The position numbers and the translations under genes were made by a program. DNA of 63,356 nt, counting the filler, from Hausera hauseri (lineage: Eukaryota): the NCBI GenBank assembly GCA_046269625.1. It is 13 parts of 13 records of this genome, joined end to end, with 100 filler letters (N's around TTAATTAATTAA, not from the genome) between each part and the next. Parts side by side here need not be neighbours in the genome. Positions count along the whole stretch, not along the records: positions 59,047 to 63,356 come from JBJURY010643107.1; 12 more parts are not named here. One strand, 5' to 3'. Positions 1-63,356 of the stretch are shown in pieces (the stretch's first letter is position 1; every line of letters begins with the position of its first letter). The notes below the pieces were generated by a model. The model had not been told where the DNA came from. It was given only the letters and a program-made list of their open reading frames with translations, and searched no databases.

Positions 1-149
1 AATTATGTTCAATGTATACAACAGAACCGCTATATATATGTTATATATTGGGGTGGCCCTTATTCAACTCCCACTATATAACAATAATTACACTTGAAGT
101 TTTTAGTACCTTGGTGCAGGTAAGGTCTACCGTTATCGAATAGGCAGAA

Positions 150-774
150 TGTACCTTATGATTATTAGTTTAATCAGTAATGCGTGTACTCGCTTGCGGT
201 CCTGTGCAAAGAACGTTTATCAAATTCTCCTCTTAACTATATGAAGTGTAAGTACAGATTTTAAGCTTAGGGTAGTCAAATCGCTTTTAAGAAGCGAAGC
301 AAAACTATGAATAAATTTACTCAATAAAATTTATTAAACAACAATTACCAATCTTTCCAAATAATCACGGAAGCACAGTATCGAATGACTCTTTAATGTT
401 TCTACAGATTAATCCTTCTGATTTTATCAGCAAAACGGTCTCCCCAATGATTCTGTCGTCTCAAAACTTCTGTTTTACTCAGCTGTTCTCATCCTTTTAT
501 AATCTCGTCTTCGATAATTAATTTGTTTTTTTATTCCATTCAATTTTGTTATTCATAATACGGTTTTGCTTTTTATACATTATTTTTAATTATTATAAGC
601 TACAACCTACGATCAATTCTATTAACTCAATACGTTCAAATTTTTATTCAATAAATACAATATTCTATTCTGTACATACAACTAATTATGTACACGAATT
701 CATAAATACATGATACCTTTTATATTTATTTATGAGCTACGATATCTATCAGCTGTACTCTTAGCCATACTACA
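150..774 (-). repeat. 3' LTR of complex Ty3/gypsy element, copy A (left boundary approximate)
   Basis: On the minus strand the PPT AGGGAGGAGAGATGA is directly followed by TGTAG at 774. TATAAAAGGA lies at about 492-501 and AATAAA at about 330-335. Blocks are homologous to 23590-23720 and 23900-23911. A candidate TACA end lies at about 150. Confidence 0.7.
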
Positions 775-1140
775 TCATCTCTCCTCCCTGAACGGCACAT
801 TCTGATGTGCCAATTGCGTCAGAAGAGGTGACGCCTGTGCGTGGCAATCGTAATAAGTCTATACGTTGCCTTAGACTGGGTTCGGAGCTTGTACTTGCCT
901 GATTTCCTCGAGTACTTGTTTCTAATTCATAGCTGTAATTGGGTTTTATTCTTACTACTCTAGTATAGGTTCCATTGGAAAAATACTTCAAGTCTGTAGC
1001 TTCTGCTCTACAGACTGGACATGTAGTTTTGCCCTTATCTAATGTCCATTTTTCCAAGCAATCTCGACAATATTTATGTTGACAATCCGAATTATCCAAA
1101 ATCACAGCCTTGTTTGAGATTATCTTCGCACACTGGGAAT
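770..1140 (-). pseudogene. RING-HC (C3HC4) finger, C-terminal domain of the retroelement accessory ORF (frameshifted near 1100)
   Basis: (F)PVCEDNLKQ / VILDNSDCQHKYCRDCLEKWTLDKGKTTCPVCR gives the C-x-H-x2-C-x2-C...C-x2-C pattern. The stop codon is the TAG of the LTR start TGTAG. Confidence 0.8.
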
Positions 1141-1790
1141 TCTTTTTCCTCTTTTTCCCAATTTTCGTCGTCCAAATTGACTCTTATCGTAATCTCAATA
1201 GATTCTACTACCAATCCTTCTTCATCTTGATATAGATAGGCATATATTCTTTTTTGTTTCGGATTTATTGAACTCTTCTTGGGATGGCATCTCACGGGCA
1301 ATAGGATCCAATTGCTGATATCATCTTGATCTAAGTCGGGAATTTCACCAGTCGATCGGTATTTCTGATGTAGCTTCTTAAGTAATATCTTTACGGACTT
1401 GTCTACGGGAACTATGAGTTTACCATTTCTTTTTGATTGAAATATTGGGACAACGTATTTTCCTATCTTGGGATTCTCTCAGACATAAGTATTCTCTTAT
1501 AATTCCCTTGCGGGTATCAATTTGACGAAGAACATTGCTTCCTTAATTCTTTGTTGACTATAATACTCTGCAGTTACCAATATTCTCGGGTAATCCTTGG
1601 TGGTGGCGAAATGTACATTATCTGAGGAACCTTTCTTTCGTAATATGTTCACTTTCGTTATCTGTTCCTTTTGTTTACTTGATGGTCTCGTAGATTTCTC
1701 GGTTTCAGACGGCACTTGTGTTTTTGATGGTTTTTCTGTTTGTATTCTTGGGTCTTCTGTCTTCTTTAGTTTCGGGTCTTTATTATCTAA
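1092..1790 (-). pseudogene. Middle part of the accessory ORF (Lys/Ser/Thr-rich linker plus unknown domain), disrupted
   Basis: ORFs 1497..1715 and 1092..1301 are in the same frame, separated by two in-frame stops, and read on toward the RING motif. Confidence 0.55.
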
Positions 1791-3258: not shown

Positions 3259-3356
3259 CTGAAGAAGAAAACATAAAGGTTAATCTTAAAACAAAGTATG
3301 GTCTTAAACCAAAACCAATTCTTTGTTTGATGACAGAATAATCTGATCTGTAATTG

Positions 3357-4780
3357 TCAGGTTATTTTATCATAGGGGTCTATAGGGTTTTCCCTCTCCC
3401 TTAATTCCCATTCTGTATTTTTAGGGCGTATACAATAATAATTTTTGGCAACTAACCGAACAATCGCTGTTAATAAAATGAGAAAAAATGTTGACGATAC
3501 AATAATGAATAGGATCGGTAATGTGGTTAACCCTAGTGGTACTTGTGTGGTAGTAGGAGTTGTGCTTTCATCTTCGATATTTTCATATACTGGTGATCCT
3601 GTGCGGATTTCGCCCAGGGTACGTATTGTAATTGTTTGGTTTTGCTAATTCTTTGCATGGTGTTCGGACTGTGGTTTTAGCAAATTACATTCCGTCTGAT
3701 AAGTATTTTTAAACAATGTTGCAATCTGATCATTGTATGTTGTTCGACAATTTATGTGTATATCATAATTTTGTTTTTCCTCCAAAAAGAACACAATTTT
3801 AATTCGATATGCCGAATATTTAACATGTATGCTTCCTAATTCTTTTTGAGATATCTTGCTCGATGTAACAGTTCGGTAGTAGGACTAACCTTAGTGGTTG
3901 ACTATTTGGTTGTGGTTTTCACTGAGATTTTCCAACTATTTTCTGGATAGTAAGTTTGTAATTGTATACTTGGTTTATTAGGTCACACCTCGTATAAATC
4001 AAATTTTATTTTGAACTCCTGGTTCACGGGTATTTTACAACATGGATGTTGCACACCTGCGCGAATAAAACAATACCCTATTTTCTGAGTCGGTCCCTCT
4101 GTTGCTTCGAAAGTAATACTAATTTTGCGACTGACAGTTAGCTTTGTCCGGACATCTACTTGGATGCATTTTTTTGCCTTGTTTACATATATTCTCCGGA
4201 TATTTTCGTATAATAATTTTATATCGGGGTCAGTGGATCGCAGCATTTTGTTAGGTTTTATTCCATGATGTCTGTTCCAAGCAGGGATGACTAATTGGAA
4301 CTGTGGCTTCGTCTCGATGTAAACTTCGGATGAGTCCGGTAGGTATAGGCGATAAGTGAGATTATAAGTGCGTCCGAAATCTATGTCGCAACACGGCGTA
4401 TAGTCTATAGGTTCAAAATCACAATTTGTAGCTTTTTGTGTTGTTACATCGTGTAAGACGATTTGAAATCTTTCGAAATCGTGGTGGGACCTCCAAGCCT
4501 TAAATCCGACACACACGGTGTCCGCCGAAAAATAATTAATTATCATTGATTGCAATGATTTAGTATCTTCTTGTCTTTGAATTTCTCTGACTGTTGGTTT
4601 CTTTTCCGTTTTAATAGTTTCCGATCTTGATCCACTCTTCCGAATTCCGTATACATCTCCTAGCGTAGATTCGTCGTACCACCATTAAGTTTGTGTTCTC
4701 GGAATAAAAGAAGCAATTAATGATAGAGCTAAAACGATATGAATGTATGATATTGGTCTAACAATTATTGAGTAAGTTTT
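3357..4780 (-). pseudogene. Env-position type I membrane protein (signal peptide, 2 Cys-rich domains, S/T linker, FN3, TM, YDKI tail), copy A, disrupted
   Basis: Hydrophobic IHIVLALSLIASF follows the integrase tail. ORF 3983..4555 has two C..C..CC units. TECNLLKPQS, the TM segment and the C-terminal DPYDKIT* match 61228..62169. Confidence 0.7.
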
Positions 4781-4789
4781 TATCTCGTG

Positions 4790-5965
4790 TTGGCGTAGAT
4801 TATAACGTTTATTGGGCCTTATCTCTGTCTTAACAACTCTTTGTACTGATACGACTTTTTCCTTTCCATTTTTGTTGATATATACTGTGGTTGGCGTAAC
4901 TCTGGTAACACTCGTACGGTCCTCTGCCTGTTCGAGTTAATTTTAATGAGGTGCCTTTCCTGGCTAGTGGGTAATGTACATAAACCCAATTTCCTTGTTC
5001 TAAATCATGCGGTTTCGCTTTCTTGTCATATTGCTTTTTAAACTGTTCTTGATATTCTTGGGATAATTCTTTGGCGATTTCCCAACATTTTCGCAATCGA
5101 GTTTGTAGCACTTCTGCAAAATTCTTTTCTAAATCTTCGGGATTGACTGTGTATGGCGTCATTCCTAAGTCTGTGGGCGGCACAGCTTTACGTCCATACA
5201 TCATGAAGAATGTGGTAAATATTGTCGCTGGATGTGGTGTGGTATTAACTGCAAATTGAGTTCCTTCTAGAAATTCATCTCAATCCTTTTGGTCCTTGGC
5301 TACTACTGTGGATAATATACGTATGACGGTTGCGTTCATTCGTTCGACCATTCCGTTACACTGAGGGTGATACGCGGTAGTTGTTAATCGTTCGATTTCG
5401 AATATCTTGCTGATTTTTTCGAATAATGCACTTGTGAAATTTCTTCCTCGATCTGTGAGTATCTGGTCTGGGGGTCCGTATCGGCAAATAATTCTTTTTA
5501 CTACGGCTTTTGCTAAGGTTTCTGCCTTTTGATCAATTAGCGATATCAACTCGACAAAATGATTTAATCGGTCGACACAAGTCAAGATATACTTATTGTT
5601 CTTGTGAGTCGTAGGAAGAGGGCCTACGATATCCATAGACATGGCTTGCACAGGTCTATCGGCACATTAATTGGTTTTAATTCGGCCATGTAGTTTTTCG
5701 TTTTCTTTTGATTAGTTGCACATACTTCACAGGCATTTACCCAATTTTTTACATCAGTATAGATACTAGAACAAAAGTTATTCTTTCTAATTCGTTATTC
5801 TAATATTCGTTATTCTTTCTAATGTTTTTATCCAGGACATGTGTCCGGCTAAGTACGAATCATGTTCCGACGTTAGCACTTCGGTTCGTAACCCTTTTGG
5901 AACAACCATCAATTTCCTTCCTTTTCGTTTGTAATATAAAATATCGCCATTGCTTTTGTCATTTA
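4790..5965 (-). mobile_element. Ty3/gypsy integrase, copy A, disrupted
   Basis: SMDIVGPLP, ILTDRGRNF and TTAYHPQCNGMVERMN form the DDE core; a GPY motif follows (RGPYE). Near-identical to 59937..60850. Confidence 0.92.
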
Positions 5966-6065
5966 NNNNNNNNNNNNNNNNNNNNNNNNNNNNNNNNNNN
6001 NNNNNNNNNTTAATTAATTAANNNNNNNNNNNNNNNNNNNNNNNNNNNNNNNNNNNNNNNNNNNN
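5966..6065. other. Artificial 100-bp contig spacer (N..TTAATTAATTAA..N); also at 11619, 15742, 20154, 24327, 28535, 35775, 40533, 45193, 49873, 54456, 58947
   Basis: An identical 100-nt spacer with a six-frame stop linker is repeated 12 times. Confidence 0.98.
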
Positions 6066-20253: not shown

Positions 20254-21220
20254 TGTACTGCTGGATCAAGTATTTTATAGGTATACTTTAATTCTTTTTT
20301 AGGCCTTTTCTCTGAAATGGCGGAATTTGTGACAGTACTCACTTGAGTAATTGGTTTTATTGTTGCTTCAAGTGAAAATTTCCATCTGATCTTCCGGACA
20401 GTATCTTCCAGAGAAAATATTCGATTCGTTAGGTCGGAGTTCATAAATGTCGAAATATATTTTGTACTTATAATCTACCAGTATTTTACAACATGGATTC
20501 GATATTGTGGACCCAATGCCACAATATTCTGGTAGGGGAGCTAATTCATATAATTTATTAAATCGAACGGAAGTTGCTTTGTCGTCCGTCAACAACCTTA
20601 TGGTTTTTATCTGGATACATTTCTTTTTCTTATTCTTAGAAATTCCGATTATGTTCTCGTCTAACATTCGTTTTTGTGGATTGGTTGATTGGATTATTTC
20701 ATCAAGTTTTACTTGGAAACGTCGATCCATCGAAAGTGTGATTAATTGAGATTGTGGATCCACTTCGGCGTAGACATCATTTAAATCTGGCAAATACAAA
20801 TGGTAAGTGCGAATATATGAATCTCCATAGTTTACGTCACAGCATTGTGTATAATCGCCCGGTTCGAAATTACAATTGATCTTTGCTTTCCTTGTTATAT
20901 CATGTAGTATAACCTGAAACTTCTGAAATCACGATTTGTTTTGTTTGTTCTAAATCCAACACATTTTCAGATGTAAAGTAATAGGCCTTCATCGTTTGTA
21001 ACAACTTGGTGTCCTCTTGTTTCATGATTTATTCGGCAGTTAATTTCTTTCCCTTTTCTACCGTTTTGTTTTAGTCCACTTATACGAATTCCATATACAT
21101 CTAGCATAGTTTTGTGACCCACCATAGGACCCTAATTTTTGCTAAATATGCAGCAATTAGTGATTGTACTAAAACTGTGTGTACGTAGGATGAGTCGAGC
21201 AATTATTGAAGGTTTTGTTT
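20254..21220 (-). pseudogene. Env-position Cys-rich/FN3 membrane protein, copy B (truncated by gap)
   Basis: NCNFEPGDYTQCCDVNYGDSY..YHLYLPD and KKCIQIKT..EYCGIG..NPCCKILVDYKYKIYFDIYE. Confidence 0.7.
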
Positions 21221-21359
21221 TTCTGCTATTTTGATTTTGACGCAGGTTGTAGCGTTTGTTTGGTCTTATTTGCGTCTTAACCACTCTTTTAACCTTCAGA
21301 ACTTTACCATTTTTGTTAATATAAGCTGTAATTGTTGTTGTTCTAGTGATCTCGATGAG

Positions 21360-22255
21360 GTATCCTGGAATTTATCATCCGTTATTCCTTTTACGAGATT
21401 GGTTCCTGTAAATTTGTTAGGGGCGGCAGTTATACCTCCATTCGATAGGCTTACCCAATTGGTTTCAATACATCTGAACGTAGATTATCCTAAGCTAGCT
21501 TTACATTCTTTTAAGATTGTTGGTTGAGTTGCCTTAACTAACAAGACTCTAATAAGTGGCATAGCTAGTAGAGGAGTATCCTGGTACAAAACCAGGAGTT
21601 CTTGTACACAACGTTTTTCCTCGACATTAATTGGTACATCTCGCCCCACATTCATAGGTTAACAAGACTTCGCCTGTGACTCAGCCGAAAATTTCTCTCA
21701 TTGGAATTATTGTCATGCTAATTCAGGGTTGGCGTAAATTAGAGCTAATTTTGTTCTCATAATTTCCATATTTAATTTGCAGTCGTTCGTTATCATGTGA
21801 TACAGTTCGGTTATTCCGTCTCGTTTTTTGTAGTAGAAATAATCGTCTCTATTTTTCAAGTAATCTTCGATTTGTATATCCTGCGTTTCCTATTTATATG
21901 TCTGTCCATTTATTTCGGTTTCCGCTACGAAAAATGCCTCGTAATTTGTGGCATACATTACTACTTCGCAACGCGAGAGCATTTCTTTATAAATTTTAAT
22001 TCAGGTCAGTGATTAGTACAGTTGGTGTAGAGTGCTCGGCAACGTCTTCTCGTGTCCTGGCGCTACTATCTACTTTATTCACATCATTTACCAGTAGTTT
22101 CATTGACCTTCAGCTCCTTAATTTTGATGAAATTACAATCATTTCCCGAGGGTGGTTCCCATATTATGATTGAACTTCTAAAAGCACAAGTTCCATCTTG
22201 TAAATGACATTTTTGGTTTTCAATATATAGTTTGGTGATGCCGTCTTCGTTTATA
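21360..22255 (-). pseudogene. Chuvirus-type (class III-like) viral glycoprotein remnant
   Basis: Manual minus-strand translation through stops and frameshifts: CHLQDGTCAFRSSIIIWEPPSGNDC; MYATNYEAFFV; YLKNRDDYFYY..ITELY..NDCKLN..LALIYANPELA; FG*VTGEVLLTYEC; RCVQELLVLYQD..MPLIRVL..EC..F..WV. Motif order matches Jingchuvirales-like G proteins. Confidence 0.65.
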
Positions 22256-22259
22256 GGTG

Positions 22260-23158
22260 ATTTGGACCTATCAATTTTCTATTATTACTCTGGTTCGTTG
22301 ATCCTTGTCTATTGTTCGCCTTATATCTATATTCATTGTTTTCGTTTTTGTCATCGATTTCCATAATCCGAACTTCTATAGCTGTTTTGGTTGGTATCTG
22401 AATTATAGTTTGGCTTATTACTTGAATTATTCATGTTCCGATTATTTCCAAATTTCGATTATCGTAATTTCTATTATTGTTATTGAACCTTCTAACATCT
22501 CAGCTACGGTTATCGTTTCGATCATTATTTCTAATTTCTGTCATTTTGTCTGGCATATCTATCTAATGCCATTTCTAAGTCTTGAGCTAACTACAAGGTA
22601 TTGTCAAAGTTTTCTGGTCGAGCTAAAATTAACTATTTCGCTAGGTCTCTAGACCGTATACAATTTATCGATTGTGTCGTCATCATAACGTCTATATCAG
22701 GAATTACTTTCTCTGCAGCTTCGCGTTCGGTTTCATTTTTAGCTTTAGTTACATTCGCTCTTCTTAACATACTTATATAACTATTTGTCAATTTCTTCAG
22801 TGCAAATGCAAACTGGGTGACTGATTTGCCCTTCTCTTGCATCCTGTTTTGAAAATCTATGAATTTCTGTTGAGTTACCGTGGGCAATAATTTACGGTTT
22901 AAGGCTCCTACTAGTGACGGCCAAGATTTTTTTCTCGTCGCTCGTAAGTTTTGTATAGGCATTAGCAGCCAAATTCTTTAAAAAAGGTGATAAATGTTTT
23001 ATCGTTTGTTCGGGTTCAGGTCCGGCACCTTCTGTATGCAGCTTATATGTTCTCAAAAATTCGTTTAATCCGTCCGGATACCCAATATATGCCGGCAGAT
23101 TCAAAGAATTGACTGTAAAAATGTCCAGTTTCGGCACTACTACGGGATTTTGTGCCAT
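22260..23158 (-). pseudogene. Gag (capsid-like plus Asn/Arg-rich linker) of complex gypsy element, frameshifted
   Basis: LPAYIG..LNEFLRTYKL..LSPFLKNLAANAY..W..L..ALN..F.NRMQEKGKSVTQFAFALKKL fits a retrotransposon gag pattern. Confidence 0.75.
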
Positions 23159-23514
23159 TGTATTAATTTCGTTACCTAAGTCTTTTATTATTTTTACGAA
23201 CTTTATTTTTCATATGAGTAATTTTAAATTTATTAGTTTGCTCGATAGCAGTTAAATTTAAGTTAGGTAAATTTACTCTAGTCTCAGAAAGTTAACGTTT
23301 ATCTGGAGTTTTATTACGTCTATAAATATTTCTGCGCTTTTGGCATACAAGTAAATTTCCTTAGCCATTTAGATTAAGGGTTTCGTTTGATTTAGACCTA
23401 TCAATATTCGTTCTTTGTTTTTAACCTTTAATTAATTCTTGTTCACTTATACCAAAGATTTTGTTAGCGAATCTTAATTAATTTAGTTAATGTAAGAGGC
23501 ACTGATCGCCGGTA

Positions 23515-24322
23515 TGTAAATAGTTAACTGTCGAAGTCAAGTTTAGCAAGGCACAAACTGTCCTTGGGCCCAAATCGTCTCTCAGCTATGACAAATGTTC
23601 TCGCCTTAACTATGAATTTTAAAATTGATTTTAAACTTAGGGTTGTCATATTACCTTTAAGAGGCAATGCAAAACTATAAGACAGTTTTAATAACGACAA
23701 AATATATTGAACGATAAATAAACAACCGCACAGCGTCGAATGATATCAACAACTTCGAATGAAGACGATTCTTTCAATAAGTTCGCAATTTGGTTCGTTT
23801 GGATTCTATCACGATTTTCCGGATCAGCTTTCTTTAAGAACTCAGTCGAATTTCACTAATCGGTTTAACCAGATTTTCTTCCTCTTTACTCTTTAGCTCG
23901 TTCCTTTTATACTGTCTTATTCTGTGAATCTTTCTTAGTATTTAATTGTGAGAAATTTATCAATGGGAATTAATTCATTATTCTAAAATTTTACTAATTT
24001 CTTGTGAAAGTTTTGCATTTAACTCGTTGAGAAAATTTGTTTTATTATTTAATCAAACACACTGCTATTCTTCTATGGTTAATTTTGTTGAGAATTCTTG
24101 TAATTTGACTTAAACACATTTTCCATTGTTCCATAAGAAATTCTACAGCTAGAGATTAGAGTTCACTATACAATTCTATATTTTAGAATTATGTACAATT
24201 AATTGACGACTTTTTGTACCAAATGTAAAATATCAATCCACATTACAGTATATTTGTCAATTTCATTTGTTCTCAAGTTTTATATTTTCTAATAGTAGAG
24301 GAAAAATGAGAATTCTAATACA
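23515..24322 (-). repeat. 5' LTR of complex gypsy copy B (upstream boundary approximate)
   Basis: Shares TATAAAAGGA (about 23902-23911), the hairpin block and the CTTAGGGT block with LTR A. Ends TTTACA at 23515, followed by a possible degenerate tRNA-Arg PBS (CGGCGATC). Confidence 0.6.
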
Positions 24323-26629: not shown

Positions 26630-28030
26630 GTTCAAGAAGGATCGGAAACTGTAGAAAGAACCGAGTCTTTTGACTTCATGGTTATTGATAACCTCAACCA
26701 AACAGTTAACGAAGATTATGCCTACTATGAAATGGAATGCTTATCCATAACAATTTGAAAGGACATTATCAAAGATCTGGATTAATTATCAAATTATCCA
26801 ATACGGCAACAACATTGGCAGATTTAATCGACATCTCCAGTCGGACAACATCAGTATACATATCGGTAGCAAAAGGAGATCTTCAAATAAAAAGTAGAAC
26901 ACATTTAAACTAAATTACGGATACTCTTGACATTCCCGAATTAACTACTATTTGCTTGGACAAAAGGTTCCACAAGAATGCTACCATTATATTCCGATCA
27001 TATGGCGGCCCACCTCCGATAATCTACGTTGAGATTACCCGCAGAGAAACTTTCCCTCAAATTGAGCATGAAAAACCTACCTATCCTCCAAATCTACCCA
27101 GCCGAGACCAACTTATAAGTGGAATATCTTTCTCTCGACTACCACTCATACCAGAAACTAAGATAGCTATAACAACAAACTCTGCTTACTTGTTAACGCC
27201 ACTACGGAATAAAGAAATAACTCTTATAGAGTTGACTGTTACCGACCTAAAAAGAAATATTATCCTGGATAAAGTTGTTACTCCGCGTGATCGAGTCGAC
27301 AACTTCGATAGTCAAATTACCGGACTTAAAGAAATGGACTTAATAGGACGAACTGACCCATACCAGATTAGATCCCTCGTCAGGCAAAAGCTTAATGACA
27401 AACTAATTATTGGCATGGATATTTACAGTACAAATCTGCATCTTGATTTATTCGATATCAACTCAATATTTAGGATCATGGATTTATTCCACCATAATGA
27501 GATAAACCCAGAAAAGAAGTTGAGCCAAAGCAGATTCTGATGAAATTCAATATCGCGTATCCCCTTCGCACTAGACAGAAAGCTGCAACAATATTGAATA
27601 TTTACAAATCTATCAACGAATATAAAACCAAAAATCGTAATCCACAAGAATCGCCTATTCAATCACAATCGGATAGACAAAGATCAACCGCAAAGGAAAT
27701 GCTACAAACGGTCGAGCATATTCAAAGTCTTGCCTTATAGGAAAACCGCATAAAGTCAGTTCCTGAACCCATCGAAATTAGTCAAATGCCACAAACATCC
27801 ACACATATACAGTCAATCAACGATCGACCACTCTCCGCCGCCGGTTCCAGTGAATCTATTCTAATAGATTTGACGAAAACAATAAAAAAGGAAGACATCT
27901 CAAGAAATTGTAATTCTCGAAAAGAAAATCCAAAAGAAAGGACAATGGGGTCAATCAGAATCCGCAAACTATTGCTACAATAACGGAGTCCTCAAAACAT
28001 ACCCTCTGATACTGAGGACAATATCATCTA
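26630..28030 (+). pseudogene. Accessory ORF with REXO1/REX4-like DEDD exonuclease fold at the 3' end of an LTR element (copy C)
   Basis: IELTVTDLKRNIILDKVVTPRDRVDNFDSQITGLKEMDL..VRQKLNDKLIIG; the ExoIII-position helix reads RTRQKAATILNIYK. The ORF ends just before a PPT. Confidence 0.65.
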
Positions 28031-32594: not shown

Positions 32595-33019
32595 AAATGT
32601 ATGTTCTGTCCCACCCGCCGGTGGTGTGCGAATCGATAAATCAATTTGCACATGTAGTGTGCACTATCTATCTGTAGTGTGCTACGCGACGGTGCCACTA
32701 GGCACCTTTACTATGCACATTTTGCACATTTCACAAATCGATCGCTGCGCAGTGCAGTATTGATCGAATCGATCGGGACAAAGTGCTAATAGATAGTGCG
32801 TGTCAGTGCACATAGATTAGTGCACAGTGCAGGTGTGCTGCACATGTGCAAGTGTGCAAAAATCTTATATTGGATTTCCGATAATCCAATATTGATGATT
32901 ATGGCACGGTACCGGGTGCAATCGAAAGCACACATGATGGACTGTATCAATGTGCATTTAGAATTTAAATATATTGATTGGTTTTCGAATAATTGCCAAC
33001 TGGGACAGAACATGCATAT
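32595..33019. mobile_element. MITE-like element with terminal inverted repeats; right part duplicated at about 33180-33450
   Basis: ATGTTCTGTCCCA (32601-32613) is the reverse complement of TGGGACAGAACAT (33001-33013). The internal block repeats downstream and ends CAACTGGGACAGA. Confidence 0.6.
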
Positions 33020-33459
33020 GCCTTTTCGCTATAAATTGAAAATCAATAATATCAATATGGCACATATACTGGCGGGTAGAGTACTTGATGTACTATCGTT
33101 CAGTGAAATACTCGAGTCAAGTGTACTCTTGGATACGGTTGCCAAGGCACTTTTTCACTTCACATATTGGTCACTGTACAGCGTAGGATTGATTGAATCG
33201 ATTGGGGTTAAGTGCAGGTAGATAGAGCACATCGAGATGCACCTTGATATATACTGTGCAGTGCAAAACCACGTGTGCAAGTGTTCAAAAATCAATATCG
33301 GTTTTCTGGTATTTCCAATATTGATGACTAGGACATGTGACCGGGTTCAATCGATTGGAAACACGATGCAATATATGAACGTGCAGTTAGAATTTAAATT
33401 TATTGAGCCGATTTCGAATAATATCGATCAAAAGTGCAACTGGGACAGACTTCCCATAG

Positions 33460-34260
33460 ATTTTTTAGGCCCTAAGGAGTCAAAATTCGATATTATAATT
33501 AGCGGGGACAGATAGGAAATCAACTATGGCGATCTCGAATATTCGATATTCGAAAAAACTTTGACCCGAATATCGAATATCGGACTATTCTAAAAATTTA
33601 ACAGCAGCAATCGATTCCTCGTATATGAAAACCCCCTTACACATAAAAATTATTCAATGAAAATGTACTATATAGATATAAAACCAATATTTCGAATTAC
33701 GCAAAATGTGCATTTGAAGCGCAGTGAAGCGGAAATCGATAAATCTAATAGCGGGATTGTACAGGAAAGCATATATGAAGAATCGGAATATGGAATCATT
33801 TATTCGAATTCGAGCTTACAAGTCGAATACTTGGCTATTTGAACTTGAAAACTCGGTCAAGCAAGCATTATTCGAAGAATCTAATGACGGTATTCGAATC
33901 CCCATGGTGGAAAACCCATATGGCAATCAAGATCAGTGTGGTTCAGTGCCGTTCAGTGTATAAAAACAAGGTTTGTCAAATATGCTAAAAGTTCTTATTA
34001 AATGCAAAGTCATTCTTATATTGATTAAGCAATTGAGTTGATTTTGAAGGTGAAGTACATTGAAATCGGTAAATCTTTAAGCGTACATGGATAGGAAAGC
34101 CTATATGTAGAATCCGAATATGATGTTAGATGTTCGAATATCATATTCGAACTCGAAGAAATATCGATTCGAACTCGAATATTTGATCAAGCAAGCATTA
34201 TTCGAAGAATGTGATGGCGCCAATCGATTCGGCATGTATGAAAACCTATTCAAATTTGGC
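33460..34260. repeat. TCGA/TTCGAA-rich non-autonomous repeat with an internal tandem duplication
   Basis: TCAAGCAAGCATTATTCGAAGAAT and AGGAAAGC.TATATG.AGAATC.GAATATG each occur twice, about 330 bp apart. Confidence 0.5.
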
Positions 34261-34541: not shown

Positions 34542-35774
34542 ATGTGCAAACTGTACAAAGATTGCCTAGCTCCAATCCATGAGTTAGAAACCTGCCATAG
34601 TACTATGATGAAATACTATGGCCACATGTTCAACAGAATCCAATACTATATATGCCCTACATGTGAGGTAGTGTGCAGGACAGTATACGAGGAATTCTAC
34701 AACGTACATAAACGACACTTGATATCCTTCGTCAAGTCAAAAAATTCTATAATAATATGCCCACAACATCTATTGTGTCAAAATAAAACAAGGTGCAGTT
34801 CATATATGCATTGCACATGTACAATACATAACCCCGAGAATTGTCACAATACCATGAGGATCTATTATGACCACAAATTCAATCGAATCCTTTATTATAT
34901 TTTCCCAGGATGTGAGACTGTATGTGATGGCGAATACATACAGTTCTATGAAGATCATAAGGATCATCTAACTGACTTTGCATCAAAGTCTAAGAAGATC
35001 ATATTTAATGAGCATAGGCCAGTTGCACAGTCCGCAGTGCAGTCCACAGTACAGTCCTCAGTACAGTCCACAGTACAGTCCGCAGTACAGTCCGCAAAAA
35101 TAAAACGCCCATCAGGTCCATCAGATGCCTCAGTCTCAACAGGCGTAGCAGCTCAGCCAAAAGCCCAAGACAGCGGCCAGTTGATGCTGCTGCACTAAAG
35201 AATAAAGTCCGCAAATATATCATTGATGCAGCTGGACAAACAACCATTAAGGAGTTCCTGGAATATGCAAAGGAAGAAATAGAGGGGATCCTCCAAGACA
35301 ATATGACTGAGCTCAATGCCCTTAAAGTTAACATGAAACTTGAGGCCACATACGTCAATGTCGATGCTAAAGAATCAAATACGGCCTTCAAGACAAAAAT
35401 AGGCCTATATTGGAAAACACAAATATAGCTGAATAGCTGCATAAAGAGCATACGAAGCTGATACTGTGAAGCCGATGAGAGCCAGGATAAGAAGAGTGGA
35501 TGGACTCTGGAAACCATCATTAGACTGTTCTATATGTACACAGATACTCCCTCATGCGAGGCAGTTCATATATATAGCTTTCGGACTGGATCGCTAATAA
35601 AAAAGCATGTGTCAGTGTTCAGAATAATGACAACATGTGCTTCATGTATGCCATTCTATCAAAACTCGTAACGGATCAAAGGCATGCAGCAGATCGGATT
35701 TGGCTATATAATGATCTCCAACACAACTACGACTTTCAGTGTATCACATTCCCTCCATCCATAGATGAAATCAA
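34542..35774 (+). mobile_element. 5' part of protein-primed PolB gene (Polinton/adintovirus-like) with N-terminal tandem Cys/His repeats
   Basis: LKVNMKLEATY, AFKTK, KSGWTLETI, RGSSYI.L..WIANKKACVSVQNNDNMCFMYAILS and DFQCITFPPSIDEI. Confidence 0.75.
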
Positions 35775-54257: not shown

Positions 54258-56522
54258 TAGGTTACATGGCCAGTCGAAAGAGAAATGTGAGAAATGGTCG
54301 AATATTGATAGGGATGAAAAAGTATCGGTTACATTGACAAGGCGTACGAAATGGAGTAAAAAACCTCTGAATGAATTCTAAGTTAAAGTTCATATTGTCT
54401 GAATAAATGTTACCAGTCGGATATTTTCTTTAAAAAACGATAGTCCAAAGTTGGTNNNNNNNNNNNNNNNNNNNNNNNNNNNNNNNNNNNNNNNNNNNNT
54501 TAATTAATTAANNNNNNNNNNNNNNNNNNNNNNNNNNNNNNNNNNNNNNNNNNNNTTTTAAACTTAATTTTCTTTTGTAAAGTTGTTGAATAAATATTTT
54601 ACTTTTATTTTGAAATATTATAAACTTTAAATATTTTCGAGAATGTTTATTAGTTTGTATGCAGTTTTTTGTCACCATGCTTGCGATGGTTATTATATGT
54701 ATATTTTAATGCGACATAACTTTAGTGTCAAATGGAAAGCTGAATATTAATAGAACATTGAATGAATTAAAGATTATGAATTCTTTTGCATATTTTTGGG
54801 AAGTAGGAGTTCGATTTAACGTTGAATTTATCCTTTATAGAACTTTAACAGTTATTTCTACATATTTCAAATTATTAAATATAATAAGGTGTTTTTAAAT
54901 ATGGTTTAAAATACGTTTCTTCGTAAAGAAAATCGTCTTTCCTTAATGAGTACCTCCTACCCCATTTTTAACACTCTTTTGTCTGATTCTAACTATTCGA
55001 AAATGTCTACAACTTGATCGCTGCATTGCGTACAGCAGTCTCCATCGTTGAGAATCCAATTGACTTTTACATAGTACAATTATTTTAAAACTCCAGACGA
55101 GCTTCTTGAATAAGTGGTTGCCAACTTGATACTGTAAGTTTCAAATTTATTCAAGTTTTGTTTCTTAAGAAAAGTACCAAAATTTGGAAATTAGAAAATA
55201 AATTGGGTGATAGATCCTATGAAAAAATCCTGAAGTGAGGAGGTTACCTTCTAAACCCCCATCATCAACGGCACTGCTTGTCAGACCTACAATCTTATTG
55301 AGACGATCTACAATAACCAGTTATTATGTGATCCATAAAATCCACGGCTTTCACTGCATTTTAATATTTCCTTGGGATCATCACTTCTTTTGCCTTTTGT
55401 GTATAATAAATGACTGTTTATGTTGTGTATCATTTTCTTGTATTCAACATTATAAAACTCACGGTGTACGTGGGTAGTAAATTTGTCTGATATTTCTGTA
55501 AATGTGTCTGACATTAATCAAAAAGAAAATGTGCGTCTAACTTTTCTGCTGTTTACGATGCCGAACAACGATTTTTTGTGATTTTCTGGAAGTGTCGTTG
55601 ACATTTAATATGCTTTTCAAGTAGCGATTTTAGATTTTTAGAAATACCATTAACATTTTATGTGCTGTATTTGCTCTTTATATCAGTAGTTGTAAATGTT
55701 AATTATGTGATACCTTCTATTTCACACACACACACACAATCTGTATTATATAAAGTGAGATTTTGCATGAACAATAACAAAAACTTTTGACTTATCCTTT
55801 CATATTATTATTGGCATGACATCACGTGAGTGTTCATTTTTGTACATGATTAATTGTTGAGTTTTGTCATAAGATAAGGAATAATTTTTTTTGGTCAACA
55901 AACGGTTTTGTTTTTATATAACAAAAGTAAATACATTAATTAAATAAACGTACTACTAAATAGGATCATTGGTCGACCAGGACAAAACTACATGACGACC
56001 ACCCAAATAATAGTAAGTAACGATATAAGAAAATAAACCTTAGTGAATAATTGTTGATTAACGCTACAAGCCGTCACACATTACCTAGTAATAGTTAGGT
56101 AAGGCACCAGCATTATACCTCTGCAAAACCACTCATAGTGACTAATTAAAGAAAAAGTTATATATGTTCTCCCCATTAAATTAATCATTAATATACAAGT
56201 CTCTCCCAACGTAACTAGTGAGGATTGAACACAATTACAGTCACAAATTCTAACAATCTGCTAAGTCTATAAATGCTATTTGTCAGTAATTATGATCCTG
56301 CCTGTTAAGTGGAAACAATCCTATTCATGATTTAATTATTGAACACAATACGAAACACAACTTTGTTTTTCGTTGATGTTATAAGCTGGTCTTGTCAAAA
56401 ACTAATATTCGACGTGTAGAATTAACAGAATAGCACTATGTAGTGATGAAAATGTCCACAACATGATGAATCACAATGATGAATATTTAATTTTAATTCT
56501 ATTTTCGCACTCCTAGAGTCCT

Positions 56523-56680
56523 TGTGGTGCCCACCTTTTGCGCGCCCCGTGGCCGGATGGCCGGGCGACTTCGAGTGCCTGTCATCACTTTAATGGCGTC
56601 ACAGGCCTCAAACCGTACCGGTCTCTTACGCCGGGTCCTGTTGCCGCACGACGATGTTAACACTCGGCCCTCGACTGTTG
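56523..56680 (+). repeat. CsRn1-like LTR 5' fragment
   Basis: Starts TGTGGTGCCCAC; GC-rich island with TGTTGCCGC like the other LTR starts. Confidence 0.6.
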
Positions 56681-57121
56681 TTTCTTGGGTTTTGCTTCGA
56701 AAATACCGGATGCGAAAAAAATCTTACATTCGTTCAAACATCATTCTTAAATTTATAACGGAAGTCTCATTCATAACGATTCATCCAGTGAATATTCGGT
56801 ATCAGACCCTATTAGGTCGAAAGTGTTTATGGGGCAGAGATGGATGAAACAATCAGTCTCATTATGTTGCTGAAAATTTGGTGTCAGAGTTAGAATACAT
56901 CACCGCAGTACTACACCGGAGTGCACCAACTTTTCTTTGCAGTTACAGTCCATGGATTGTTCCCTCTCCGGCAGGAACCTTTTAATCTATTTTACTTTAT
57001 GGTATGAATATTTTAATTGTTGTTTTGCTGTTATATTTTTTAACAAACCGATTTATTACTATTCGAATATGCGCATTTTTAATCGTACCCTTATTCGCTT
57101 TTACATAGGGCTATTTTTCAG

Positions 57122-57850
57122 TCGACCTGTTGTTTACCCATTATTCAGTATCTTAAATACGGATATACCAATAACCTGGGTACGACACGTCATATGCGTT
57201 ATTGTCAATCTAAACCGTAACAAAGACCCACCTCCTAACCCGTCAACTGTCGGCGAATTGCTACCCGTCTTACGTTTCCTTATACTAAGCCCAGATATTA
57301 ACACCTTGTTGGATACTGTTTCAACATTGTTATATTTGAATGACGGACGAAATGCTAAAATACAAATTGTTATTGACGTTGATATCGTTCGGTTTTTGGT
57401 ACCACTTTTGTCACATAATGACGTAAAAGTGCAAACTGCTGCATTGCGGACAATCCGTAATATGGTAACGGAGACCACTGGACGGACGCAATACGTACTG
57501 AATTACAATGCATTACCTCACTTCTCACAACTGCTGCAACTTTCAGTAAGAAAAACCAACAAAGAGGCTCTTTGGTCTTCGTCAAACAACACTGCCGACA
57601 ATCAAGGACAAGTTCAAACTGTCATCGACAACCAACTCGTACCGCTCATAAATTACCATCTGCATAAAGAAGATTACCAAACCAAAAACGAAACTGCAGG
57701 GGCCATTACAACTTTTAACATTAGCGCAACATCCAATCAAGTCGCATATTTTGCGCAACAAGACGTCATTACGCTACAGTACAAAACCTTGTCTGTATTC
57801 GACATTCAAGTAGTTCAAGTTGTTCTTCATTACATTCTTAATACCCACAA
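57122..57850 (+). pseudogene. Importin-alpha (alpha-3/KPNA3-4 subfamily) ARM-repeat exon, degenerate
   Basis: IPITW.R.V..IVNL.RNKDPPP, LVPLLSH.DVKVQTAALR, NKEALW..SN.TA.NQ.QVQ and QVVQVVL. Preceded by TTTTTCAG; several conserved Trp/Gly residues are lost. Confidence 0.88.
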
Positions 57851-57869
57851 CATCTTCCATCACAAAGAC

Positions 57870-58946
57870 CGTCAAGCGGTTGCCGGACCTGGTTATGGAG
57901 ATTCGGCCGCCCAGAGGTTGCCACGCCGGCGCAGTGGTGCCACGCGTCGGGTTGTCGCGCCAACGCCGTCCGAGCGCCGGGCGTGCTTGCGTCACGCACC
58001 ACAGTGCTCACCCGTCGCTCATACCCCCTATATATCTCTTCATTTTTTAACCACCAACAAAAACATATAGACACATGGAAGGACACATTACACGCAACAC
58101 GCATCTAACACCACCTTTCTAACCTTCTAGGCACTTCTAGCTTTTTCTTATCCTACAACGGTCTCATAATCCACAACTTTTATGGTCTTCTCCTTTTCAG
58201 ACAGACTTCCTTTCTTATTCAAATCAATTTCAAAATCCTTGGCGGCATGAACTCTCCATCTTCGACTGACATCACGGAAAAGCCAAAATCTATTCCGATA
58301 TTACGCTGCGCCGGTACAGGCACACCTACCGGCCTCCCTTTCTGTCACCACTGTACCGAATTCTTCATCGACAGTCAGAACTCAAGCCAAACCTGGCTTC
58401 AATTCCATCAGCTCTGGCTGCAATCTGCAAACATCACTGAATCTCTTCCAAAGACCCATAGTCTCTTCTACTATCTACCAAATTCAATTAAAACTCGAAT
58501 ACCCAACCTTTTACAACTCTTCAGACATCCTGATCCTTACAAGGAGGTATATAACGCTGTTGTTAGGCTTACAGAGCCTTCTTTGGATTCTATTATTCAA
58601 CGCTACTTCAATGAGAACACCCTAGGCAATCAAAATCCCTCCGAATTCGTACAAGTAGCTCTAAATAACTTAAAAACACTCGGAGTAACACAGGAATACA
58701 ACGCAGAACTTTTAAGACGTTATTTTCTCCACGCTTTAACCTTACAAATTAGGGGTCCGTTAACCGTGGTTGAAGAATCATTAGATCTTAACAAACTGAG
58801 TTAGCTGACAAATCATGAATTATTGCAGATGCACACTCCCCCACTTATCTCTACTACCATCACACCATACGACACACAACAAAACACATTGCACAAACAA
58901 ATAACTCAATTAAAAGCCGACAATAAAGCGCTGCTAGAAGCCATCA
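57870..58946 (+). mobile_element. CsRn1-like element 5' end: LTR 3' part (ends GCACCACA at 58003), leader, gag (58247..)
   Basis: Gag EPSLDSIIQRYFNE..NQNPSEF..NAELLRRYFL is homologous to 8874..9749; the LTR end is the inverse of TGTGGTGC. Confidence 0.82.
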
Positions 58947-59046: not shown

Positions 59047-60850
59047 TTAACAAGCGAACCTGTTTTGCGATATCCAGATTTTAACTTACCTTTCATAATT
59101 AAGACCGACGCCAGTAAGGAAGGTATTGGATACGAATTAGCGCAGAAAAGAGAAGATGAAGAATTAGAACATCCGATTGCTTATGGAGGACGTTCCTTAA
59201 AGAAGGCTGAGAAAAATTATTCTGTTACGGAATTAGAGACTCTAGCGGTAAAGGAATAACTTAGACATTTTAACGTTTATGTTTACGGGCAGAGGATCAT
59301 AATTGTAACTGACCATAAGGCCGTTACGACTTTAAAAGGTAGAGCCAATAATCCGACGTGCAGACTTAATAGATGGATCGAAGAAATTTCCAGATATAAT
59401 ATTGAATTTCAGTACAAGCTAGGAAATAAACATGTCGACGCTGACGCACTATCGAGATTAAAGGTTAAAACAAGCGCAATCACCGTAATAAAGAAAAGTC
59501 AACTTGAGGAAATAATAGATCGCCATCGCGCGTTAACGACCGATAGAGCAATCAAGATTTCAGTGGAACATAGAAATGATAAAGTTATCCAGCAGATTAT
59601 AGAATTTGCTACAAGGGATATCATACCAAAAGCGCGACAGTTGAAGAAACATCTGCATAGACATGGACATAAATACTGCGTCGTAAATGACGGAGACAGA
59701 AAAGCCATCTTATACTACGAACGAAAAGGAAAAAAATTATTAGTTATCCCAAGAAGTCTACGAACCGAAGTACTGATGTCAGAACATGATTCGTACTTAG
59801 CCGGACACATGTCTTGGAAGAAAACTTTAGAAAAAATAATGAACAAATATATTTGGCCTAGTATCTATATCGATGTAAGAAATTGGGTAAGCGCCTGTAA
59901 GTATGCGCGACTAAACAGAAGAAAACGAAAAACTATATGGCCGAATTAAAATCAATCAATGTACCACATAGACCCATGCAGGCCATGTCGATGGATATAG
60001 TAGGACCTCTTCCTATAACGTACAAGAACAATAGATATATTTTAACGTGCATCGATCGATTAACTCATTTTGTCGAGTTGATAGCATTAATCGATCAAAA
60101 GGCGGAATCCTTGGCAGAAGTTGTAGTAAGGAGAATTATTTGCCGTTACGGACCACCCGACCAAATATTAACGGATAGAGGAAGAAATTTTACCAGTGAA
60201 TTATTTGAGAAAATCACTAAGATATTTGAAATCGAACGATTAACGACTACTGCATATCATCCTCAATGCAATGGGATGGTCGAACGGATGAATGCTACAG
60301 TTATGCGTATACTGTCAACAGTAGTGGCTAAGGATCAAAAGGATTGGGACGAGTTTTTGGAAGGTACTCAATTTGCCATTAACACCACGCCACATCCAGC
60401 AACGGGATTTACACCATTCTTTATGATGTATGGACGTGAATCAGTGTTGCCTACAGACTTAGGAATGACGCCATACACAGTTGATCCGGAAGATTTAGAA
60501 CAGAATTTCGCAGAAGTGTTAAAAACGCGATTAAAAAGGTGTTGGGAAATCGCCAAGGAACTATCTCAAGAATACCCAGAGTAATTCAAGAAACAATATG
60601 ATAAGAAAGCGAAACCGCACAATATAGAGCAAGGGAATTGGGTTTATATACACTATCCAGTAGCCAAAAAAGGCACCTCATTGAAATTAACTCGTACGGG
60701 TAGAGGACCGTATGAGGTCATACGAGTGACGCCAACCACAGTATATATCAACAAGAATGGAAACGAAGAGGTTGTATCAGTACAGAGGGTCGTCAAGACG
60801 GAAATACGACCCAACAAACGTTACAATTTGCGCCAACGAAAAGTGAAAAC
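59047..60850 (+). mobile_element. Complex Ty3/gypsy element copy L: RNase H plus integrase
   Basis: IIKTDASKEGIG, EKNYSVTELE, TDHK, HDSYLAGH..C, SMDIVGPLP, LTDRGRNF, HPQCNGMVERMN and RGPYEV. Confidence 0.93.
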
Positions 60851-62169
60851 TTCGTCGATAGTCACTAGACCGATATCATATGTTCAGATAATCTTAGCCC
60901 TATCATTAATTGCCTCATATATACCTACGGTGAAATCAAGCGCTAAACAAAGGGATATCCGGAATTTACAGACACTCAGAGTACGCGATATAGATTGGAA
61001 AAAGCCATGTGCATGGTTCGAACTGGACAATCCTATTCAAAGACACATAGGGATTCAGATAACCCTTATAACTACTGGGAATGAAATGAGTATATGATTT
61101 TCCATACAGGCACCACAGGAGATGTTGCAATCTAGATTTCGGAAAAGTCTATAGATATAGCTTTCAACTACTTTATTCCTATAAGTTTGGCGTTCAAGCC
61201 GACATAGCCTCCGAGCTCATAATACAGATGCCACAACAAAAGGAGGCAAGTCAAGCAAAAACGGACGAAATAATTCGAAGCACTGATCCGATTAACAGAA
61301 TCTTAGATAACAACATTGTTAGAATTCACAAGGATTTGAAAAACCAATGCGTTTGGATCGAGACTAAATTTGCAGTACCAGAAAATAAGGAAATCTCAGT
61401 CCAGTTTATCCCATTGAACATCTCTATTCCTAGACCAGCGTACTGCTCATTGGCGAAGAAACGTCCTACCGTATGCTGCACAATACAATTAAGACAAAAG
61501 TACCAACTACGATTTGATTTGTACGATACCTATCCGGGTGAACGGAGTGTTTCCCTAAGAGGATATCGTCCAAAGGACAGAGTATGGGAGCTCTTACGTC
61601 CGCCCACGACAGAAAAACCATCCACGACGCCGAGTACTATCCGCAGTACTACGATTATTGCTACGAACGGGATACTAGGAGGCATTCCTATTAAATATTC
61701 AGTATATCGATCTAAGATTGTGTTCTTTGTAGAAGAGAAACAGAACTACGATATATACATAAGTTGCCGGACAAAGTATAATAATCAAGTGGTGACATTA
61801 TTTAAAAATACTTATCAAACAGAGTGTAATTTATTAAAACCACAAACCGAATATATAGTCCAAATATGCGCGGAGAATAAGCAAAATCAGACCATTACAC
61901 TGCGAACCTTAGAGGAGATTCGTGCAGAATCCCATGCATATGAGGATATAGATGAGCAGATTACAACTCAAGTCACCACACAGGCACCAATAGGAGTAAC
62001 TGTAATACCAATCGTATCTATCACGGTACTGTCAGCGATTGTTCTCATTATATTAATTGCGATTTTTCGATTAGTCACCAAAAACTGTTATTTTAAGCGA
62101 CACGAAAATTCGGAATGGGAACTAAGGGAGTTGGGAACCTATGTAGACCCATATGATAAAATAACCTGA
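60850..62169 (+). CDS. Env-position type I membrane protein (SP, 2 Cys-rich domains, S/T stalk, FN3, TM, YDKI), copy L; one lesion at about 61095
   Basis: SP VQIILALSLIASYIPTVKS is in frame with the integrase tail. RCCNLDFGKVY; CVW..YC..VCC..YQLRFDLY; FN3 signature LKPQTEYIVQICAEN; TM IPIVSITVLSAIVLIILIAIF. Confidence 0.78.
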
Positions 62170-62240
62170 TATTACAGAGCAGGTTATTCTGTCATCAAAC
62201 AAAAAATTGGTTTTGGTTCAAAACAATCCTTTGTTTTAGA

Positions 62241-62266
62241 ATTAAACTTTATTTCTTTTTCTTCAG
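62241..62266 (+). promoter_or_regulatory. Putative splice acceptor for the accessory ORF (counterpart at 3259-3285, minus strand)
   Basis: TTAAACTTTATTTCTTTTTCTTCAG here and TTAACCTTTATGTTTTCTTCTTCAG in copy A; the open frame begins right after the AG. Confidence 0.6.
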
Positions 62267-62267
62267 A

Positions 62268-63356
62268 TTGGTAAGTAACCAGACGCTAATGGATTCTAGC
62301 CGACATAGGATCGACGCAGGAGAAAAGACGAGCCGAATTAGAGTTGACACAGAAAATGATACCCAAAACGCTACGAGTCGACTTAGCATCGACGAATTCT
62401 TACAGAAAAACGTAACCATACGAATTCCCAATTCAAAGGCTATATACAGACAGATCAATAATGAATTACAGGGAAAAAATATTGTCCAATATGGCAGAGT
62501 CAGCGAAATCCCAAATGGTCTAAAGGGAATGACCGAGGAAAACCGGACAGTATATTTATACGCATGGAGAGAAAACAAAGACGCAAGAGTATATCCCTTT
62601 AAGCAAATCGCTCAATATCGAACAGTCGAGCAACAGAGAGTATACGTACATCTAGCCGACGGAGAAATATACTATCGGTTGAAAGAACAAAAATGGGATT
62701 CCTTCCAAGGAAGACAAAGTCGGTTCAGTACGTTCGTGTTCAATAGTAAGGACTTCAAGGATAATGAATTAGAGTTTCGCATAGTTGCCCTACCAGTCAA
62801 ATTGATGATCGAAACAACCGAAGAAGAACCAATACGTACAATACTACCCCCTATAAAATTTAGACAAAGGCCTACAGAACTAGAGCAAAAAAACCACCTA
62901 CATTCCTTTAGACTGGTGGCAGACGACCGAAATATCCGAGTTGTAGCAGTAAATTACTGGGAGGGAGAAGAAGATTATATTCCAATCGAAATATCCATCC
63001 GGGAAGAAAACGGAGTCGAAATTTATTTGAAAATTATTACTCCAAGGAAAAAGATACTGGAAACTCACGCAGAAGTCACTTGGATTAGAAGAGACCAATT
63101 GAGTCAAGGAAAGAACTTCAAATTAGTACAACAATAAGTGGCACAATGTCTCTACGGGTACGTCCTAGTGGGGTATCAAGTAGAGAGAATAATGAAAAAA
63201 TTAGATATACCGATAGAACATTTAGCTGGAATAAGAGAAATAGAATTCCACCCAACCGTTACGAAACAAATGCAGATCAAAGACAAAGAAAGAAGGGGCC
63301 ATATTCTATTAACCACAGAAGTCGGTTTAAGCTAATGATAGAAGCCATGACCGGGG
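62268..63356 (+). pseudogene. Accessory ORF with DEDD exonuclease-like fold, copy L (in-frame stops at 63135 and 63333; runs off window)
   Basis: VVAVNYWEG..PIEISIREENGVEIYLKIITP..ETHAEVTWIRRDQL.QG..LVQQ*VAQCLYGYVLVGY; homologous to 1787..2845. Confidence 0.7.

Follow-up and report, generated by a model that had tools for sequence, protein, structure and literature searches.

A predicted FN3-like membrane protein behind the integrase of a probably gB-bearing Ty3/gypsy family: a candidate attachment partner with a probably exchangeable outer cassette

In an LTR element of Hausera hauseri, the frame of the integrase runs on into a signal-like segment and a putative membrane protein, which raises the question of what this protein is to the element, e.g., its envelope, a partner of another envelope, or a factor directed at the host cell. 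The window analysed here (the whole stretch of 63,356 nucleotides, in which 13 contigs are joined) contains three copies of one element family, designated L, A, and B (Table 1). Since they are located on different contigs separated by N spacers, these copies are not neighbours. All three are broken, and an intact element is found in none of them: the env region of copy A carries several stops and one frame break, and copy B is rearranged, having lost the bulk of pol and a portion of env. In copy L, a stop interrupts the integrase at 60582-60584, and the frame breaks near 61090-61097; hence, the stretch 60850-62169 is not a single ORF in L. These breaks go unmentioned in the first-pass annotation, an earlier reading made from the sequence alone.

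Table 1. Positions of the element features along the window, by copy (D1, D2, distal domains; D3, proximal domain)
Copy	Feature	Position	Strand	Basis or remark
L	Whole copy	59047-63356	+	Contig begins inside pol
L	RNase H, bridge, integrase zinc-binding domain	59047..59949	+	Pfam RT_RNaseH E 6.8e-8, Integrase_H2C2 E 1.4e-15
L	Integrase core and C-terminal tail to RYNLRQ (60819-60836)	59901..60848	+	rve E 1.4e-15; stop at 60582-60584
L	Signal-like segment, in frame with integrase tail, no ATG	60849..60938	+	Hydropathy peak 2.51
L	Distal domain D1, FN3-like (predicted)	60939..61233	+	Frame break near 61090-61097; P0001 D1 structure matches
L	Distal domain D2, duplicated in tandem with D1	61252..61578	+	Local scores; seven predicted strands
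L	Ser/Thr/Pro-rich linker	61597..61674	+	Sequence; low pLDDT at P0001 266-319
L	Proximal domain D3, FN3-like (predicted), conserved L-A	61675..61920	+	Pfam fn3 E 0.018, 15.7 bits
L	Stalk, TM helix (~61996-62079), cytoplasmic tail to YDKIT	61921..62169	+	Hydropathy peak 3.14
L	Conserved non-coding block behind the stop codon, with pyrimidine tract and AG at its end	62170..62270	+	85% L-A
L	Accessory ORF3	62160..63137	+	69% identity to A over 192 codons, pN 0.16, pS 0.84
A	Whole copy	1-5965	-	Contig begins inside pol
A	Integrase	4911..5965	-	83% identical to L in nucleotides
A	Integrase tail, signal, D1, D2, linker, D3, TM, tail	3360..4909	-	Broken
A	ORF3 open piece, 417 aa	1790..3040	-	Reading frame
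A	RING finger accessory ORF piece	950..1162	-	zf-RING_2 E 7e-8, zf-C3HC4 E 2.4e-7, above cut-offs
A	Polypurine tract (AGGGAGGAGAGA followed by TG, near 789), LTR-like region at 3' end	221..789	-	Alignment to B
B	Whole copy	20254-24326	-	Contig ends at 20254
B	5' LTR-like region	23592..24097	-	Alignment to A
B	Gag-like pieces	22636..23209	-	Retrotrans_gag E 0.067, weak
B	Broken gB-type fusion glycoprotein remnant, between gag and integrase tail	21354..22278	-	PF24664
B	Integrase tail, signal, D1, D2	20371..21353	-	Most of pol absent

The succession of RT_RNaseH, Integrase_H2C2, and rve matches (Pfam) in copy L follows the Ty3/gypsy pol pattern; the integrases closest to it are 39-48% identical, and the RT of the family lies outside the window. 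In the public run X1, a fraction of 0.37 of the words of copy L is present. As many as 10,367 of the 15,501,002 X1 contigs could be placed on L at 80% likeness (none of them spanning it) and 4,429 on A 2900-5300 at 85% likeness, contig depth being no equivalent of copy number and no means of ranking regions. Coverage extends to 30 of 30 bins both for L and for the env region of A. Thousands of contigs on both copies suggest that the family comprises many variants, although X1 may itself represent the source material. The window also harbors host genes, e.g., those encoding importin-alpha-like Arm repeats, NOT2/3/5, and ankyrin (Pfam), which together with the LTR elements point to a eukaryotic host, most likely an animal.

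Relatives of the membrane protein were sought in larger collections. A word-based search returned a single match among 935 candidates, the intact protein P0001 (479 aa), and a full profile scan across 1.84 billion representatives yielded two matches, P0001 and a fragment, P0002. No related locus was confirmed in metagenome contigs or viral contigs, and a sequence relative in the PDB was found neither for P0001 nor for profile A3. Profile A4 matched bile salt hydrolases only, and at chance level (E around 1-2).

At the junction, the frame of copy L from 60585 onward passes from RYNLRQRKVK to IILALSLIA stop-free and without a Met ahead of the hydrophobic stretch (Met is absent from 60585-60938 altogether). 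Likewise, the integrase tail of copy A continues into the signal-like segment with neither a stop nor a Met (4688-4909). In copy B, the signal-like segment and RYNLR lie in different frames; thus, the continuity of integrase and signal claimed earlier stands for two of the three copies, L and A being homologous and, therefore, not two independent trials. No indel was listed for the X1 contigs where the integrase tail passes into the signal (thresholds of 10% and 5%). In the relative P0001, Met residues are found immediately ahead of the signal, so a separate start of the membrane protein is possible there. A fused polyprotein of integrase and membrane protein was encountered in none of the 462 candidates among longer proteins, which constitutes weak evidence.

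The hydropathy profile of P0001 displays two peaks only, corresponding to the signal and the TM segment; together with the predicted helices, it fits one signal (with a putative cleavage) and one TM helix. Between them, D1 and D2 are tandem duplicates: their local scores reach z 4.8-9.4 and beat 300 of 300 shuffles in all six D1-D2 pairs. By the same comparison of local scores with shuffles, homology of D3 to D1 or D2 is undetectable at the sequence level. According to the alignments, D1 of copy L is devoid of the N-terminal extension of ~35 residues found in A, B, and P0001. The C-terminal end Y-x-x-I-T is common to all four sequences in question (L, A, P0001, and P0002). Conservation of the distal domains, ascribed earlier mainly to a cysteine skeleton, turned out to be broader: 21 positions are invariant in four of four sequences, and the predicted strands are 44% identical vs. 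25% for the loops, a pattern compatible with selection that preserves the fold.

This fold is predicted to be FN3-like in all three domains. The AlphaFold (AF2) model of P0001, obtained from 8 alignment rows with a mean pLDDT of 61.8 and a pTM of 0.35, comprises three sandwiches of seven strands each, along with a TM helix and a disordered Ser/Thr linker (pLDDT 63-84 in the D1-D2 block and 58-73 in D3); a single-sequence prediction for L attained pLDDT 40. In the Foldseek comparison of P0001 with the PDB, triple-FN3 fragments rank first (fibronectin 10-12, E 1.6e-7; Tie2; gp130). VIA-align superimposed D1 of P0001 on FN3 domains with Z 8.0-8.6 (rmsd 2.6-3.0, 84-93 residues), and the best match of a wide VIA search over 48,161 chains was again FN3 (Z 8.3), a Z near 8 being attainable by a common sandwich arrangement. 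Structural matches of D2 and D3 come through multi-domain alignments only, D2 being linked additionally through its homology to D1. The ESM Atlas offered FN3 clusters at 0.85-0.89 for both queries, to be regarded as leads only. At the level of Pfam fn3, the best score was 15.7 bits (D3), below the cut-off of 25, with no fn3 match for D1, D2, or P0001. Taken together, the D1-D2 scores and the Z values of D1 suggest that the distal domains, previously thought distinct from FN3, are FN3-like tandem duplicates themselves.

The anatomy of a fusogen was not encountered in this protein. The ectodomain of P0001 contains neither an R-x-x-R furin site nor an internal hydrophobic fusion peptide. Among the 50 BFVD matches listed and the PDB matches listed, there was no viral fusogen, all of them being FN3 or Ig-like sandwiches; this absence carries no weight against a family outside the matches listed. 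The lack of a furin site and of a fusion peptide, along with the FN3 modules predicted by AlphaFold, Foldseek, and VIA, agrees with the non-fusogen part of the first-pass annotation.

Divergence between copies L and A is distributed very unevenly along the element. Amino-acid identity amounts to 88% (126 codons) and 86% (120 codons) in the integrase, 86% in the integrase tail, and 63% in the signal; it is 39/156 (25%) in the distal domains (20-21% in D1, 27% in D2) and 77-79% (55/70) in D3, the contrast between the distal domains and D3 being highly significant (Fisher p 3.5e-14). The far higher divergence reported earlier for the distal domains is, therefore, confirmed. Near identity does not extend to the stalk (50%), the TM region (53%), or the cytoplasmic tail (62%), although it had been reported for the latter two. 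The L-A alignment at the DNA level deteriorates sharply from ~60926, just past the signal, and recovers at ~61676. Closest to each other in D3, L and A are nevertheless the least alike of six pairs in D2 (25/91; 32-39/91 in the others). In D1, A pairs with B (34/67) and L with P0001 (23/65); over 50 columns of this domain, A equals B in 17, L equals A in 4, and L equals B in 1.

The maximum-likelihood branch lengths for P0001/L/A, estimated from one natural piece per copy, were 0.21/1.43/1.92 in D1b-D2 and 1.12/0.00/0.29 in D3. One tree with proportional rates was rejected for D1b-D2 vs. D3 (LRT 49.6, p 1.7e-11) and for D1b-D2 vs. TM (p 8e-10); it was kept in the control comparison of D3 vs. 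TM (p 0.71). Hence, a uniformly faster rate of D1-D2 is excluded. As the D1 quartet and the D3 quartet are both compatible with a single five-taxon topology, the argument for exchange consists in the reversed branch lengths and not in a topology conflict; for D2, the alternative topologies are not distinguished (AU p 0.25-0.74). These comparisons provide evidence for a history of D1-D2 that differs from that of the rest of the element. Exchange of D1-D2 as a cassette, which would agree with the domain swapping envisaged in the first-pass annotation, is favoured as a simpler reading than lineage-specific acceleration.

Such an acceleration, i.e., divergence of D1-D2 in place after the split of L and A due to positive selection or relaxed constraint on exposed domains, is rather unlikely. 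It is in line with the single topology shared by the quartets and the conservation of strands above loops, as well as with the synonymous change at conserved residues, which is alike along the element (0.39-0.53; synonymous differences at identical residues, 24/47 in D1-D2 vs. 94/242 in the integrase, p 0.14). At the same time, it would take a fivefold shorter branch of P0001 and more than sixfold longer branches of L and A, and it has to account for the sharp fall in DNA identity right behind the signal. Pairwise dN/dS also speaks against it, being below 1 (dN 0.8-0.9). Since dS is near saturation, positive selection is not claimed, and the diversifying selection suggested earlier finds no backing in these values.

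The question of the envelope is addressed by copy B, where an LTR-like region, gag-like pieces, a gB-like remnant, the integrase tail, and D1-D2 follow one another on one contig. The Cys-rich stretch at 21354-22278 includes a piece (21716-22000, with X at the stop) matching PF24664, Monjiviricetes_fusion, with E 6.9e-6 and 24.7 bits, below the cut-off of 27. An overlapping piece matched the same family with E 0.0014, and one of the eight single pieces did so with E 0.0077; the full-length read-through (P0011) yielded no Pfam or PDB match. The motifs TPTV and C...YATNY of the remnant recur, as judged by eye, in the gB-type env rows of Smed elements. Because the gB-type remnant lies between gag and pol in B, the FN3 protein is probably a second membrane protein. 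Judging by this gene order, it is probably not a replacement env, in contrast to the name it had been given.

Both LTRs on one copy were seen in none of L, A, and B. The LTR-like regions of two copies are related: A 701-221 aligns with B 24097-23592 in the same orientation with a score of 113 (none of 200 shuffles exceeded 57), tying the gag and env pieces of B to the L/A/B family. A gag-like ORF at 58109, considered as a part of copy L, was discarded because it is situated on another contig. Downstream of the FN3 stop, the pyrimidine tract followed by AG, resembling a splice acceptor, is present in both L and A; a hairpin in this place was not significant (folding z -0.84 and -1.46). The ORF3 further on belongs to no known family and has no Pfam or PDB match. 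Pieced together from three broken copies and complete in none, the likely order of the element is LTR-gag-gB env-pol-FN3 protein-ORF3-RING-LTR.

Overall, we lean, by a narrow preference, toward an attachment or adhesion partner of gB: a module encoding a predicted type I membrane protein with three FN3 domains would end the long frame of a Ty3/gypsy element (likely LTR-gag-gB env-pol-FN3-accessory ORFs-LTR), with its outer domains probably exchanged between subfamilies by recombination. A more specific version, offered tentatively and somewhat unlikely as it stands, is a two-protein entry, comparable to that of large enveloped viruses, in a lineage of endogenous, retrovirus-like gypsy elements, with the gB fusogen encoded before pol and a post-integrase FN3 attachment protein whose D1-D2 tropism cassette is swapped between subfamilies. 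The FN3 protein would be synthesised within the polyprotein as its last module after the integrase, the segment following the integrase would serve as an internal signal, and host signal peptidase would release the protein into the secretory path, where the TM helix would anchor it. YxxI motifs are established sorting signals, and the tail may direct the protein to the membrane of particle formation or to cell contacts. D3, the TM helix, and the tail would remain adapted to the proteins that the element itself encodes, D1-D2 would face a host ligand and vary, and the whole could act next to the gB fusogen in adhesion or attachment.

All these are predicted roles only, and the main functional rival to attachment is the role of a decoy or interference factor, which would bind, in the cell that produces it, either the receptor or a ligand of host defence or signalling and would take no part in entry. 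Superinfection exclusion or cytokine-receptor mimicry would be examples. This reading is unlikely in our estimation, although it draws on several observations: the FN3 matches include the cytokine-receptor domains of EpoR, TSLPR, and gp130, YxxI tails drive endocytosis, and the element carries further host-modulating cargo, e.g., the RING finger. Its weak point is that the cytokine-receptor matches are on a par with every other FN3 domain matched (5-16% identity) and indicate no receptor class; the observations agree with attachment equally well.

It is improbable that the FN3 protein is the sole gene in the env position, a non-fusogen env, and that copy B acquired its gag and gB from another element by nesting or misassembly: its 5' LTR-like region matches the 3' LTR-like region of A in the same orientation, and its order equals that of GAG-ENV-POL elements in the consulted parts of a published survey (PMC13524379). 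What can be said for it is that the gB remnant was seen in one of the three copies, that this copy is rearranged, and that the contigs of L and A start inside pol. That the module gave rise, or is related, to variable surface antigens of a host (the former a possibility raised in the first-pass annotation) is very improbable: the taeniid EG95/45W antigens possess the same signal-FN3-anchor layout, but this layout is frequent in many unrelated receptors, and all three window copies are situated directly behind the integrase tail. Neither these antigens nor a host homologue was among the sequence-search matches (in libraries weighted to prokaryotes and metagenomes).

To our knowledge, the receptors of invertebrate retroelement envelopes are largely unknown. 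If the preferred reading, i.e., attachment beside gB, is true, an additional surface protein, non-fusogenic and carrying an outer cassette open to exchange, would represent a separate targeting module for such elements, and D1-D2 would mark the part meeting the host. Cell targeting by endogenous elements would then become testable with a small soluble ectodomain.

Entry with two glycoproteins is exemplified by herpes gD, operating with gB, and by the paramyxovirus attachment protein, operating with F. The arrangement proposed here would resemble them in placing a variable receptor-binder beside a conserved fusogen, a likeness of analogy only and not of shown homology. The comparisons with retroelements below refer to the consulted parts of the cited papers. 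GAG-ENV-POL elements with gB are described in Platyhelminthes, Nematoda, and Bryozoa (Chary and Hayashi, PMC13524379), and the envelopes of invertebrate retroelements are presented there as lone F- or gB-type fusogens, rarely recombining. The window family is similar to Smed_errantivirus_1-6 of the same study (“ancient errantiviruses”) in its Ty3/gypsy pol and a probable gB-type env between gag and pol, and short motifs of the copy B remnant are common, by eye, to the Smed C1a env rows (PMC13524379). It differs from them in the addition of the in-frame post-integrase FN3 protein, ORF3, and RING ORF; “fibronectin” or “FN3” is mentioned nowhere in the main text of PMC13524379.

In the planarian Burro element, gag and pol flank an env that shares their frame (PMC6431247). 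The giant gypsy elements Burro/GYPSM1 share with the window family the in-frame gag-env-pol polyprotein and accessory domains linked to ubiquitination; unlike it, they come with no FN3 or post-integrase membrane protein listed, and no occurrence of “fibronectin”, in the consulted parts of PMC6431247. The BIR, MATH, BCL2, and ankyrin domains reported for them there were seen in none of L, A, and B. Atlas virus, encoding a single Gag-Pol-Env polyprotein (PMC9094657), and the nematode belpaoviruses provide another parallel, i.e., a glycoprotein in frame after the integrase. However, Atlas virus belongs to Belpaoviridae, and its C-terminal protein is a class II fusogen with FN3 topology in domain III alone (PMC9094657); the window protein would consist of three FN3-like domains and has no long domain II.

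Extra genes of LTR elements are known in several forms: non-env ORF3 cargo in rotifer elements (PMC5408684), sORF2 of the 412/MDG1 group, mediating cell-to-cell transfer (PMC11952523), and another extra-ORF type (PMC4402516). The rotifer ORF3 and sORF2, some of them with TM segments, resemble the FN3 protein as extra LTR-element genes and are unlike it in being separate short ORFs or enzymes outside the pol frame, according to the consulted parts of PMC5408684 and PMC11952523. The corresponding parts of PMC3315495 and PMC8166898 held no pertinent content. No description of a post-integrase FN3 membrane protein was found in the literature searched, which consisted mostly of papers accessible without subscription and lay apart from Repbase entries. 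The FN3-bearing, probably gB-bearing gypsy element is apparently an undescribed form of a known type of element. To this type, the window would add three FN3-like domains, as predicted by modelling, and, as the sequence comparisons suggest, a separate history of the outer two.

Past the stop codon of the FN3 membrane protein, a non-coding block is 85% identical between the Ty3/gypsy copies L and A, i.e., above the level found in the transmembrane region and the tail, and is closed by a splice-acceptor-like tract ahead of the accessory ORF3. In some short contigs from the public sequencing run X1, the last codons and this block are held in common, whereas the sequence upstream (near 3374) is unlike; this divergence hints at more membrane-protein types. 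At the opposite end of the protein, a segment of about 35 residues following the signal-like stretch is absent from L (60939–60990, +) and present in A, B, and the intact 479-aa relative P0001, being helical in the AlphaFold model of the latter.

Features in the window, with their positions and strands
Feature	Position	Strand	Remarks
Further broken ORF and RING finger	950–1500	-	Copy A, between ORF3 and polypurine tract
Non-coding block, A	3255–3356	-	After stop
Non-coding block, L	62170–62270	+	After stop
Importin-alpha-like ORF	56874–58070	+	Pfam Arm, E 9e-18
PBS-like TGGTGTCAGAG	near 56880	+	One flank of importin-alpha-like ORF
Gag-like ORF	58109–58804	+	Other flank of importin-alpha-like ORF
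Unexplained 243-aa ORF	9995–10726	-	Upstream of one gag-like ORF, second gypsy family region
Cys/His-rich ORF with internal repeat	34542–35198		Adjoins direct duplications
208-aa open piece	26914–27540	+	Weak match to exonuclease ISG20, E 0.014

The importin-alpha-like ORF seems to be borne by an LTR-like element (56500–58946, +) distinct from the L/A/B family; its gag-like ORF is similar to that at 8874–9998. A second, simpler gypsy family is represented by several decayed copies (6060–9998, 11719–13340, 15842–18950, and 45293–47340), whose pol pieces are 65–86% alike.

Two local direct duplications (ca. 110–280 bases, 72–79% alike) lie within 32715–34249. The broken pieces at 42003–44899 (-), which are similar in a motif to Polinton-type DNA polymerase B, gave no match in a Pfam search. 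The ISG20-like piece, situated on an A-rich contig, may represent retroelement cargo comparable to the DEDD ORFs of rotifers.
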